Shown piece by piece: positions 60,968-63,971 of a stretch of DNA of 64,000 nt (its first letter is position 1; every line of letters starts with the position of its first letter). A program made the position numbers and the translations under genes. Origin of the DNA: a virus; IMG/VR virus record IMGVR_UViG_3300044612_000719, positions 1 to 64,000 of that record, one strand, 5' to 3'. A model generated the notes under the pieces. That model ran no database searches. It was not told where the DNA came from and was given only the letters and a program-made list of their open reading frames with translations.

Positions 60968-61047
60968 GTCACGGGTCATCTTCGGATGGCTCGTGGCGCT
61001 CATAGAGCACTGGGGTTCATCCCCTGACTCCAGTGCTGTATGAGCGC
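60968..61047 (+). promoter_or_regulatory. Double-hairpin leader element A (UUCG hairpin plus long hairpin)
   Basis: GTCACGGGTCATC-TTCG-GATGGCTCGTGGC then GCGCTCATAGAGCACTGGGG...CTCCAGTGCTGTATGAGCGC. Confidence 0.7.
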
Positions 61048-61098
61048 AGAGCGCTCCGCTGGCAACCAGCCAGCGCAGTCCTGAGGAGGACACACACC

Positions 61099-61617
61099 AT
61101 GAAAGCAACACGACAGCAACTACTCAATCTCGGAGCCAGCATCCTGAGCACTGCCTATGAAGGCGGGTCTTGCGGAATGGCTTCATGGGCAGTTGCCAAT
61201 GGCACCTACAAGTGGGGCACGGAGAAGGGCGAAGGCGAATTGCACGGCAACGAGCACTACGCATCAGTCACCGTGTACGACACCGAAGCGTGCGAGTTGG
61301 TGGAAGACGAAGCCGAATTGGCGAAGTTGACCGATGACGATGGCTTCAATGGCTGGGGCGGGTTCTACCGCTTCGGCAAGCCACTCGTGATCAATGAGTC
61401 CATCATTGCTGACTTCATTGAGAAGATCGGCACAGGTGAGTTCAATCAGGACAATGTGCCTGACTACGGTCAACTGTCAATCAAGCGGGTGAGTGCCCTT
61501 GCAGGGTGCTACCTGTTCGGTGAAGACGCCATTGACGAATTTGAGTCCGACAATGACTGCATCGTGTCTGACACCATCGTGCAGTTCATCCTGCTCGGTG
61601 AGGTCACATACGGCTGA
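61099..61617 (+). CDS. Early acidic hypothetical protein
   Basis: GAGGAGG SD before ATG 61099; TAYEGG...W and D.IVQF.LLGEV.YG motifs. Confidence 0.8.
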   Translation: MKATRQQLLNLGASILSTAYEGGSCGMASWAVANGTYKWGTEKGEGELHGNEHYASVTVYDTEACELVEDEAELAKLTDDDGFNGWGGFYRFGKPLVINESIIADFIEKIGTGEFNQDNVPDYGQLSIKRVSALAGCYLFGEDAIDEFESDNDCIVSDTIVQFILLGEVTYG

Positions 61618-61623
61618 TCAATC

Positions 61624-61682
61624 CCCCAGCGCCTAGGGCGTGGCTCTTCAATGAGCACTGGGGACTGTGAGCAACCGCTCAC
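61624..61682 (+). ncRNA. tRNA-like three-way-junction element, copy 1
   Basis: CCCCAG/CTGGGG enclosing CGCC-TAG-GGCG and GCTC-TTCAAT-GAGC, then ACT and a hairpin; covaries with copy 2. Confidence 0.72.
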
Positions 61683-61708
61683 TACAACGACCTGAGGAGG
61701 TCAACACC

Positions 61709-62116
61709 ATGAACACACTCACCAAACTGTACGAGATTCGTTTCTCGGGAACGGTTGAATGCGATATGGAGCCGATCATGCACGACATTGCAGTCGCAAT
61801 TGATAAGGGCACGCTGGAAGAGAGCGACAAGGCGTTTGCCGAGTTCGTAATGGCTCCACAGCGGATCGTGGTCAAGCGTCAAGGTAACAACACCTACGCA
61901 GTGGATCTGTCCATTGAGGGCGTGATCGCATTCGCCAAAGAGGTTGCCTATCGCAAAGAAAATGCGATTGACATCCGTACCGAGGAGGGCAGTTATGACC
62001 GAAACGGTTACAACTACCACACCAAAGTGATCCGTCAACTTGACACCGCATTGAAGGGCGCCAACAAGGTGCTCGCCAGTGTCGGTATCGCTCCAGTGAC
62101 TTCATACTGGAATTGA
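61709..62116 (+). CDS. Early hypothetical protein
   Basis: GAGGAGG SD before ATG 61709. Confidence 0.8.
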   Translation: MNTLTKLYEIRFSGTVECDMEPIMHDIAVAIDKGTLEESDKAFAEFVMAPQRIVVKRQGNNTYAVDLSIEGVIAFAKEVAYRKENAIDIRTEEGSYDRNGYNYHTKVIRQLDTALKGANKVLASVGIAPVTSYWN

Positions 62117-62141
62117 GTGATTGAGTGACCTAGTCACTCAC

Positions 62142-62197
62142 CCCTAGCGCCTCGGGCGTGCCGATTCAATTCGGACTAGGGACTGGGCAAATAGCCC
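62142..62197 (+). ncRNA. tRNA-like three-way-junction element, copy 2
   Basis: CCCTAG/CTAGGG enclosing CGCC-TCG-GGCG and CCGA-TTCAAT-TCGG, then ACT and a hairpin. Confidence 0.72.
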
Positions 62198-62221
62198 TCG
62201 GAGCAGAGGAGGCTCCATACC

Positions 62222-62758
62222 ATGAAAACATCAGAGATAAAGCAGATAATTGCAAAGGATCCGAACGCTGTGTTTCGCATTGGCGGACGTGGTCGGTACA
62301 CGCACTACGGCTCAATCACCAAGATTGAGGAGAAGGTCGTGGACACCTACAGCGCATGGGGTCGTAAGTCAGGCACCCGTGTTGATGTGCGATTCACAGT
62401 GCGTTACGAGTACTTCACTCGTGGCGTTGAGGCTCAGTTTGGTTACCCCGAGAAGTTGCCTTCAGTGATACTGGACGGAAACTCGTGGACTAAGCCACGT
62501 GACATTGAATGGCACGTAGCGGACTTCGGTATGACCATTGAGGAGTACGTAGCAAAGACTGATGCTGAAGTGAAGGCGGATTGGCAAGCCAAGAAGGACG
62601 ACCAATACGCAAAGCAACAGCAGGTCAATGCGATCATCCGACACATCAGTAGCCCAACGGTTACCGATGCCGAGTGGAACGAACTCAACGATGATCTAGA
62701 GCGACTCAGTGTTCAGACATTGCAATTAATCAATCAGAAGATCGCATCACTTGTGTGA
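62222..62758 (+). CDS. Early hypothetical protein
   Basis: GAGGAGG SD; ORF track. Confidence 0.8.
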   Translation: MKTSEIKQIIAKDPNAVFRIGGRGRYTHYGSITKIEEKVVDTYSAWGRKSGTRVDVRFTVRYEYFTRGVEAQFGYPEKLPSVILDGNSWTKPRDIEWHVADFGMTIEEYVAKTDAEVKADWQAKKDDQYAKQQQVNAIIRHISSPTVTDAEWNELNDDLERLSVQTLQLINQKIASLV

Positions 62759-62769
62759 TGTGGTCGGGA

Positions 62770-62835
62770 GCATCACGGGTTCGCCCGTGGTGCCCTCACA
62801 GTGCATCGGCGTTGTGTCGGTGCATTGTGAGGGCA
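62770..62835 (+). promoter_or_regulatory. Double-hairpin leader element B
   Basis: GCATCACGGG-TTCG-CCCGTGGTGC then TGCCCTCACAGTGCATCGGC-GTTGT-GTCGGTGCATTGTGAGGGCA. Confidence 0.7.
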
Positions 62836-62876
62836 TACAATTGCCCGTTCAACTAACAGACCCGAGGAGGTCAACC

Positions 62877-63148: not shown

Positions 63149-63213
63149 GTCATGGCGCAAGCCATGGCGTGCTCGGAGTGCACTGATCCCCCATCGGTGC
63201 ATTCCGAGGACGC
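63149..63213 (+). promoter_or_regulatory. Double-hairpin leader element C
   Basis: GTCATGGC-GCAA-GCCATGGC then CTCGGAGTGCACTGAT-CCCCC-ATCGGTGCATTCCGAG. Confidence 0.7.
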
Positions 63214-63254: not shown

Positions 63255-63971
63255 ATGGGAGCAATAACACCAAAGCAACAGGCATTCATTCGCACGATGC
63301 TCTTAGAGCGTGCTGTCACACTCGGTCTTGATGAGGCTGGTGTTGACCAGTACCTCGTAGATCAGAACGTGAATGCATTGTCAACTAAGGATGCTTCGCT
63401 CGTCATTGATGCGATCAAGAAGATTGAGATCAAGCGAGTGGGCACCGAGCACCTGCCGAAGGGTGATCGCACCATCGTCAACAAGATCGCCAAGCCATGC
63501 CAACTGTGCGGACACACCGTGCAGATCGGTCATGGCTGGAGCGTTCAAGTTGCCAGTGGCTGGCAGACATTCCACAAGGCTGGTGAGTGTTCAGCCGAGG
63601 TCATCGCCAAGCCAGTAGATGAGCAATCGCTCTTCGCTGATGTCAAGGATGGCTTCTATGCGTTGCAGTCAACGGGCACCAATGATCTCGTGTTCTATGC
63701 GATCAAGACCAACAAGGGCTACCACAATGCGAGCCTGAAGGGTCAACGTGGCATGTACATCGTGGTCGGCGGTCACGCTGACGAGAAGTTGCGTGGCGAG
63801 CGCTTGGTCAATTCAATCAAGCGCATCACGTCACTCAGTGAGGATGAACGCAAGCAAGCAATGACGCTGTACGGTCAGGAGATCGGGCGCTGTTGTGTGT
63901 GCGGTCGTCATCTCACTGATGAAGCAACACGCAAGGCTGGTATCGGCAACGACTGCGCAAGCAGGTTCTAG
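63255..63971 (+). CDS. Early protein with zinc-finger and C-terminal DUF6011-like domain
   Basis: CQLCG...H...C; YG.EIGRCCVCGRHLTD..TR..GIG.DC. Confidence 0.8.
   Translation: MGAITPKQQAFIRTMLLERAVTLGLDEAGVDQYLVDQNVNALSTKDASLVIDAIKKIEIKRVGTEHLPKGDRTIVNKIAKPCQLCGHTVQIGHGWSVQVASGWQTFHKAGECSAEVIAKPVDEQSLFADVKDGFYALQSTGTNDLVFYAIKTNKGYHNASLKGQRGMYIVVGGHADEKLRGERLVNSIKRITSLSEDERKQAMTLYGQEIGRCCVCGRHLTDEATRKAGIGNDCASRF

Follow-up and report, generated by a model that had tools for sequence, protein, structure and literature searches.

The stretch of DNA analysed here (the window, 64,000 nucleotides) comes from a 97-kb myovirus genome with a GC content of 47%, in which tail sheath, portal and large terminase genes were found; the terminase shares 45-46% identity with its counterparts in Streptomyces BRock-like phages. 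Genes of the early operon include those for a WhiB-type regulator (PF02467, E 7e-16), an SNF2-family helicase, and DUF932 and DUF6011 proteins (Table 1). Two intergenic spacers in the window each hold a copy of a small three-way junction RNA. The stop codon of the gene upstream of copy 1 lies 6 nt before the element, and in class A and class B relatives the homologues of this gene are also directly followed by a three-way junction. The AlphaFold model of the conserved 173-aa product was unusable (pLDDT 39). Copy 2 starts 25 nt beyond the preceding stop codon (62114-62116), a longer spacing that arises because a hairpin read from the sequence, GAGUGAC-CUA-GUCACUC (62123-62139), intervenes. The 178-aa gene that follows copy 2 has a three-way junction upstream in every relative that carries the gene (loci L004, L010, L014, L016 and L033). 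In many class A leaders, including that at 61690-61703 of the window, the Shine-Dalgarno sequence sits within a small hairpin, GACCU-GAGG-AGGUC.

Table 1. Features of the early region and of related loci. Positions refer to the window unless marked as genome positions or preceded by a locus number (L).
Feature	Position	Strand	Details
Upstream early gene	61096-61617	+	173 aa from conserved MKATRQQ start; weak phrog_2355 match
Three-way junction RNA, copy 1	61624-61663	+	covariance model 70.5 bits, E 1.7e-16
Copy 1 P1	61624-29 / 61658-63	+	CCCCAG / CTGGGG, read from sequence
Copy 1 P2	61630-33 / 61637-40	+	CGCC, loop TAG, GGCG
Copy 1 J23	61641-42	+	TG
Copy 1 P3	61643-46 / 61653-56	+	GCTC, loop TTCAAT (61647-52), GAGC
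Copy 1 J31	61657	+	A
Copy 1 linker	61664-66	+	ACT (ACU, single-stranded); proposed cleavage site after A, 5' of C
Copy 1 P4 hairpin	61667-82	+	GTGAGC-AACC-GCTCAC
Shine-Dalgarno sequence and gene after copy 1	61694-62116	+	GAGGAGG 61694-61700, ATG 61709; 135 aa, no family
Three-way junction RNA, copy 2	62142-62181	+	covariance model 69.6 bits, E 3e-16
Copy 2 P1	62142-47 / 62176-81	+	CCCTAG / CTAGGG, read from sequence
Copy 2 P2	62148-58	+	CGCC-TCG-GGCG
Copy 2 J23	62159-60	+	TG
Copy 2 P3	62161-64 / 62171-74	+	CCGA, loop TTCAAT (62165-70), TCGG
Copy 2 J31	62175	+	A
Copy 2 linker	62182-84	+	ACT
Copy 2 P4 hairpin	62185-97	+	GGGC-AAATA-GCCC
Shine-Dalgarno sequence and gene after copy 2	62206-62758	+	GAGGAGG 62206-62212, ATG 62222; 178 aa
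Tetraloop and long-hairpin cassette	60970-61047
Tetraloop and long-hairpin cassette	62774-62836
Tetraloop and long-hairpin cassette	63151-63213
Tetraloop and long-hairpin cassette	genome 65697-65760 (L190:1697-1760)
DUF6011	63255-63971
SNF2-family helicase	genome 64088-65617
DUF932	genome 69088-70110
WhiB	genome 70107-70472 (L190:6107-6472)
Sister class	L023:3668-3719	-
Sister class	L034:10988-11039	+
Sister class	L067:6614-6665	-
Sister class	L204:3623-3674	+
Sister class	L199:428-479	-
Sister class	L006:11514-11565	-

The 40-nt element begins with a 6-bp helix, P1, that passes without an intervening nucleotide into a 4-bp helix, P2, capped by a triloop; the joining segment J23 (UG), a 4-bp P3 with the loop UUCAAU, the single A of J31 and the 3' strand of P1 (P1') complete it. 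Each copy is followed by an ACU linker, a hairpin (P4), the Shine-Dalgarno sequence GAGGAGG and an ATG. A preliminary description of this DNA had claimed such an architecture for both copies, and a direct reading of the sequence matches it base for base. The compensatory changes reported between the copies are likewise present: one P1 pair changes from C-G to T-A, and three of the four P3 pairs differ. ViennaRNA returned the same three-way junction as MFE and centroid structure for both copies, with the MFE structure making up 0.68-0.74 of the ensemble for the 45-nt core. The fold energy of both copies lies at a z of about -2 relative to shuffles, and the minus strand folds less well than the plus strand. 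A pattern of 17 fixed bases occurs twice in the window, against 0.11 occurrences expected from shuffles. A pattern search of the 97,275-bp genome and an unfiltered covariance-model search of the early region found no third copy. We judge the element to be real mainly because of comparative evidence, namely the covariance-model E values of about 1e-16 and the family-wide covariation described below.

Relatives of the element were collected from IMG/VR with three pattern scans, each of which left a different helix or loop free. The covariance model recognised 120 and 61 matches in 57 and 32 loci, respectively, or about 180 matches in about 90 uncultured viral contigs, and 138 matches representing 109 distinct sequences were placed in two alignments. 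Metagenome contigs yielded at least 26 in which P1 and P3 are fully paired, from the first 120 pattern matches listed. The expectation that a covariance-model search would find further copies was thus borne out among related uncultured phages, and failed in the rest of the phage's own genome and in the cultured phages checked: 50,697 records of cultured phages gave no megablast or blastn match, and the model had no match in Streptomyces phage BRock, which is among the nearest cultured relatives by terminase. All 120 of the matches listed from prokaryote genomes fail P1/P3 pairing and reflect chance, and the covariance model found no copy in 151 Actinomycetia genomes, for each of which the top candidates were scored. 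The Rfam search that the preliminary description called for was run against Rfam 15 and matched no family; nothing in the window reached the gathering threshold, and the element had no match at E values up to 10, RF00005 and the ribozymes included. The three-way junction is an uncatalogued RNA family, found in phage contigs only so far.

Several observations indicate that the helices are maintained by selection. In the seed alignment 99.4% of cells are paired and eight pairs change on both sides, a result that none of 500 shuffles reached. The model-fitted alignments (71 and 44 distinct sequences) have 99.3-99.7% of cells paired and changes on both sides in 10 of the 14 pairs; both are biased toward the structure, but the seed alignment is gap-free and the fold was also found de novo. 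When the 3' partners were slid by one to three columns as a control, pairing fell to 20-55%. Covariation is present in P1, P2 and P3. Variants of P1 include CCCCAG, CCCUAG, CCCGUG, CCCCGU, GCCUAU, ACCUAG and others, P3 has at least ten, and when P2 was left unfixed in the pattern its variants included CGAC/GUCG, CGUC/GACG, CACC/GGUG and CGGU/GCCG. Selection on RNA structure, previously proposed from the two copies, now extends to all three helices over more than 100 distinct copies, and we are confident that the three-way junction is a conserved, structured, sense-strand RNA element at cistron boundaries.

That the element acts as RNA of the sense strand follows from the frequency of U.G pairs (for example, 18 of 71 at the closing pair of P2), which are C.A mismatches on the complementary strand. 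In all 36 loci with multiple copies, the copies lie on one strand. A script found a Shine-Dalgarno sequence and start codon on the same strand 3' of the element in 71 of 77 cases, five of which are spurious near calls; the start codons are mostly 33-57 nt beyond P1', with 11 at about 74-85 nt behind an inserted promoter. The U.G pairs, the strand agreement and the same-strand translation signals together argue against a double-stranded DNA site. Placement upstream of genes, as first described for the two copies, proved general: the element is always in an intergenic leader and in sense orientation.

While the stems drift, the loop and junction nucleotides remain constant, which points to specific recognition, not generic stability. 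In all 106 parsed copies the P3 loop reads UUCAAU or UUCGAU, as it does in every real match even when all 14 positions of P3 were left free; the UG of J23 and the A of J31 are invariant. As the preliminary description held, this loop agrees with the tRNA T-loop consensus UUCRA(U); the agreement is at the sequence level only, U-U-C-R-A being the loop that in T-loops can form a 1-5 reverse-Hoogsteen pair and a stacking gap. Loops with A and with G at the variable position showed no covariation with the purine of the P2 loop. By eye, no complementarity between the UUCRAU loop and either the 5' flank or the sequence after P4 is conserved that would suggest a pseudoknot.

A plain stem of 4 bp capped by a triloop does not account for what is seen in P2. 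N4, the fourth base of its stem, and N7, the third of its loop, covary in a Watson-Crick-like manner (C-G 70, U-A 27, U.G 5, A-U 1, other 3) though only two bases lie between them, and G8, which follows N7, never varies. The register of the lower stem is fixed by compensatory changes at positions 2/10 and 3/9. In the window, N4 and N7-G8 correspond to 61633 and 61636-61637 in copy 1, and to 62151 and 62154-62155 in copy 2. This pattern suggests, as a candidate shape, a CUNG-type mini-loop with G8 flipped out for a tertiary contact, which by analogy could resemble the contact between G18/G19 and the T-loop of tRNA. Either the conserved purine at N7 or the invariant G8 is a candidate for the purine that would intercalate in the T-loop.

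Spacing on both sides of the element is tight. P1 starts 6-25 nt past the upstream stop codon and never closer than 6 nt, roughly the edge of a terminating ribosome. On the 3' side, a hairpin starts after a linker of 3-4 nt in 85 of 104 distinct copies, and an unstructured (CAA)n tract replaces the hairpin in seven. The linker reads G-A-C-(U/A/G), and the nucleotides after P1' are ACU, ACA, ACG, GCA or CAC but never NCCA. RNase Z requires an A after an acceptor-like stem, without a following CCA. Mycobacterial RNase E cuts single-stranded RNA at RN|CNU, with the C at +1 as the dominant determinant (PMC10641625); the linker agrees with this motif at R, N and C but not at the +3 U, that is, at three of the four specified positions.

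In nine class B loci (L005, L020, L041, L045, L049, L050, L051, L066 and L067) a conserved promoter-like site, TTGACA-17-TACGAT, lies about 25-60 nt beyond P1'; the small GNRA hairpin of the element precedes it and a (CAA)n leader follows. Because the promoter follows the element, the three-way junction in those loci belongs to the 3' end of the upstream transcript and not to the leader of the promoter's own. In this window there is no sigma-70 promoter at the element, and neither copy has an intrinsic terminator site or a U run after P1' or P4.

A second, unrelated leader cassette recurs in the same operon. It consists of the hairpin CACGGG-tetraloop-CCCGUG followed directly by a perfect hairpin of 15-21 bp (z -6 to -9), and the long hairpins of this "class I" cassette look like RNase III sites. 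The 79-aa gene at genome position 65802 has such a leader here, with a tetraloop hairpin and a 15-bp perfect hairpin, whereas its orthologues in L033 and L010 have a three-way junction leader instead. The use of two unrelated cassettes at one orthologous gene suggests that they share a generic job at cistron boundaries, for which processing or stabilisation would be the obvious candidate, as at the early RNase III sites of T7. A sister class of three-way junctions is also present in class B phages, upstream of the homologue of the gene at 61096. It retains a P1 of GCCUAG, a P2 of CCUC/GGGG, the A of J31 and the AC tail, but differs in J23 (UA) and in an 8-nt P3 loop, CGUCRUAG. Contigs of related phages in public runs include some whose similarity to the window stops precisely where the element ends, at 61666, and one that jumps from 61687 to 62771; leader cassettes thus coincide with mosaic boundaries of gene modules.

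WhiB is a marker of actinobacteria and their phages. The earlier guess that this is an actinophage fits the WhiB gene found, which makes an actinobacterial host likely, and WhiB homologues recur in class B and C loci. The public runs that contain this DNA are lake-water and other freshwater metagenomes, and the hosts of these lake phages are probably streamlined freshwater actinobacteria. Assembled contigs from the three RNA-labelled runs cover little of this DNA. Four related genomes carry two, two, four and at least seven copies of the three-way junction, and the element is also found in contigs of about 30-43 kb with different structural genes and different flavours of Shine-Dalgarno sequence. 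At least three phage lineages, comprising 97-kb myoviruses and contigs of roughly 30-40 kb, carry the motif, and the only widely shared protein family with a named Pfam domain is WhiB. Such a distribution across dissimilar phages makes a host factor a more likely reader than a phage protein. The clustered ORFs of all loci (terminase, portal, SSB, WhiB and small unknown proteins) include no candidate for a phage RNA-binding or nuclease partner, and no RNase III or CCA-adding enzyme was found in the four related genomes.

Our preferred reading, which we hold tentatively and base on sequence comparison, is that the three-way junction may be a portable processing and stabilising module between cistrons, cut by an endonuclease of the host, either in the linker (RNase Z or RNase E) or at P1 (RNase P), so that the products are capped. 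It would act in cis on the early polycistronic transcript of freshwater actinobacterial phages. The 40 nt would fold into a compact knob like the tRNA elbow, with P1 as an acceptor-like stem, P3 bearing the UUCRAU T-loop, and the short P2 arm offering its conserved purine and G for docking on that loop. An endonuclease of the host, recognising tRNA-like shapes or structured flanks, could then cut beside the knob, most likely in the 3-4-nt AC linker between the three-way junction and P4, either RNase Z after the discriminator-like A or actinobacterial RNase E 5' of the C; alternatively, RNase P might cut 5' of P1. A cut in the linker would leave the upstream message with a tRNA-like knob at its 3' end and the downstream message with the hairpin P4 at its 5' end. 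Such ends would protect both messages against exonucleases and 5'-end-dependent decay, turning each gene into an insulated unit of expression.

The proposal in the preliminary description, that RNase P or RNase Z would divide the transcript into protected monocistronic messages, agrees with this context. A cut 3' of the element, in the AC linker, is favoured over one at 61624 and 62142 because of the promoters placed after the element and the tight spacing to the stop codon; RNase P cleavage 5' of P1 would, moreover, deprive the upstream message of protection. Both the occurrence of the motif in at least three lineages and the lack of RNase III and CCA-adding enzymes in the four related genomes imply a host factor. 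The processing reading gains from the hairpin 3-4 nt after P1', from the match of the linker to R-N-cut-C, and from the interchange with a processing-type cassette at the 79-aa gene. Against it, the element departs from a tRNA minihelix: its stems have 6 and 4 bp, not 7 and 5, and one base interrupts them; its loop has 6 rather than 7 nt, its stem ends in C-G rather than G-C, and CCA is absent. The zero-nucleotide junction suggests that P1 stacks on P2 and not on the T-arm-like P3, and the RNase E motif is matched incompletely. The sister class, with CGUCRUAG on the same scaffold in the same phages, indicates that the T-loop is not essential to the wider family. The class B promoters mean that in those loci the element cannot be a 5' leader of the promoter's transcript, and a plain hairpin would be sufficient for protection alone.

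A stronger version of the processing reading, which we consider doubtful, is that the element serves as a minimal 40-nt mimic of the tRNA elbow, recognised as a true substrate by RNase P or RNase Z of the host and perhaps by the CCA-adding enzyme, that it punctuates the early mRNAs in this way, and that the excised knob may accumulate and also act in trans. If true, bacterial viruses would have their own equivalent of mitochondrial tRNA punctuation and mascRNA-type 3'-end formation, and the mimic might be the smallest natural substrate of these enzymes.

The constancy of the loop and junction residues could also mean that a protein binds the element with no nuclease involved. Such a protein, whether a phage regulator or a tRNA-binding or ribosomal factor of the host, might set translation, antitermination or the timing of early genes; these residues resemble a recognition surface, the N4:N7 covariation and invariant G8 indicate a precise three-dimensional shape, and the element stands before many unrelated genes, as translational operators do. 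We nonetheless consider a pure binding site unlikely. No RNA-binding candidate co-occurs across the three lineages in the loci examined, direct repression is improbable with the start codon about 40-50 nt away and the Shine-Dalgarno sequence not overlapped, and one antitermination site per operon would be enough whereas relatives have four to seven or more. Equally unlikely in our estimate is a passive insulator that stops RNase J or PNPase and prevents mis-pairing between cistrons, with no dedicated cleavage. Its location directly past stop codons, and next to an unstructured standby tract, (CAA)n or rich in A/C, that precedes the Shine-Dalgarno sequence, suits such a roadblock, as do the swaps with other stable hairpin cassettes and the dominance of the MFE structure in the ensemble of the 45-nt core. 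Generic stability, however, leaves the invariance of UUCRAU, UG and A across lineages unexplained, and a fold energy only about 2 sd better than that of shuffles is not exceptional.

Action away from the transcript seems improbable. An excised tRNA-like small RNA of about 42 nt might act in trans to decoy or inhibit a tRNA-recognising enzyme or a defence system of the host, as the several copies per operon (up to seven or more) and the likeness of the elbow-like features to mascRNA-type excision might suggest, but this genome has two copies only, and an RNA without an anticodon arm cannot decoy the common anticodon nucleases. The idea that the element is a decoy of tRNA-targeting defences, raised in the preliminary description, loses further ground with its position inside the mRNAs themselves. 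At least as improbable is that the element acts at the DNA level to shuffle cassettes, as a recombination hot spot or a mobile boundary repeat, with a fold that is incidental or formed in ssDNA only. The mosaic breaks would accord with this, as would the persistence of the element while neighbouring genes vary among relatives. Yet homologous recombination needs no compensatory changes, which here retain pairing despite drift; the U.G pairs function on one strand only, the orientation is always that of transcription, and the loci yielded neither a transposase nor a RAYT-like gene. Hardly credible, finally, is the view that the element itself cuts the polycistronic RNA as a tiny self-cleaving ribozyme. 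Its layout between phage genes, a three-way junction and then a hairpin, is that of hammerhead-based insulators, but the element has only three junction nucleotides, lacks a hammerhead, twister, pistol or hatchet core, and resembles no Rfam ribozyme in the search described above.

The element is a strongly covarying RNA family that is widespread in lake phages with largely uncultured hosts. To our knowledge, tRNA-like punctuation has so far been found in organelles and in a few eukaryotic long non-coding RNAs; if the three-way junction is a processing signal, phages use it as well, and a very small fold is still recognised by tRNA-processing enzymes, a point relevant to how RNase P and RNase Z choose their substrates. 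As a compact insulator, the element might also be of use in building multi-gene constructs for actinobacteria. Together, the three-way junction, the second cassette and the sister class form a natural swap experiment on the partitioning of early messages.

Comparison with known RNAs places the element beside several systems and within none. With three helices only, stems of 6 and 4 bp and a 6-nt loop, it is not a tRNA; ARAGORN detected no tRNA genes in the window, the genome or 56 loci, no real tRNA genes were found in the equivalent slots of relatives, and there is no tRNA-like 3' end of discriminator and CCA. Like the tRNA T-arm, tmRNA and mascRNA, it has UUCRA(U) on a short stem beside a G/C-rich closing stem and a purine-bearing partner loop placed like the D-loop; unlike them, it has a 4-bp stem, a 6-nt loop, an unpaired A before the P1 3' strand and no G53-C61 pair or CCA, and both ARAGORN and Rfam are blind to it. 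The REP/BIME elements of enterobacteria are also multi-copy, lie past stop codons within operons and stabilise upstream mRNA. The three-way junction is likewise multi-copy and placed just past stop codons, but REP elements are imperfect palindromes of host chromosomes that also act at the DNA level, whereas this element is strand-specific and confined to phage contigs so far; the equal pairing of both strands expected of a REP-like palindrome is absent, given the U.G pairs and the weaker minus-strand fold. RiboJ, a ribozyme and hairpin before a ribosome-binding site, has the same order of parts (here three-way junction, short linker, hairpin, ribosome-binding site), but it cleaves itself through a hammerhead core that the three-way junction lacks.

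The T7 early RNase III sites R0.3-R1.3 are structured elements between early genes, and cutting at them leaves protective structures. The three-way junction is likewise a repeated structured element between early genes of one long transcript. The T7 sites, however, consist of irregular duplexes at least about 20 bp long, the length expected of an RNase III site, and the longest helix here, at 6-7 bp, makes RNase III unlikely as its enzyme; the RNase III-like cassette of this operon is the class I leader. In plant-mitochondrial t-elements and mitochondrial tRNA punctuation, the edges of a fold set mRNA ends through RNase P and RNase Z (PMC1920247, Forner et al. 2007). Like t-elements, the three-way junction is a partial tRNA-like fold among mRNAs, non-decoding and cis-acting. 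T-elements, however, belong to organelles, descend from genuine tRNA genes and have had their ends mapped, while the three-way junction occurs in phages, is known from sequence alone and, at 40 nt, is far smaller, with no anticodon arm and no detectable tRNA ancestry. The t-elements and the T7 RNase III sites may be regarded as its nearest analogues, by a likeness that is at most functional and not one of membership.
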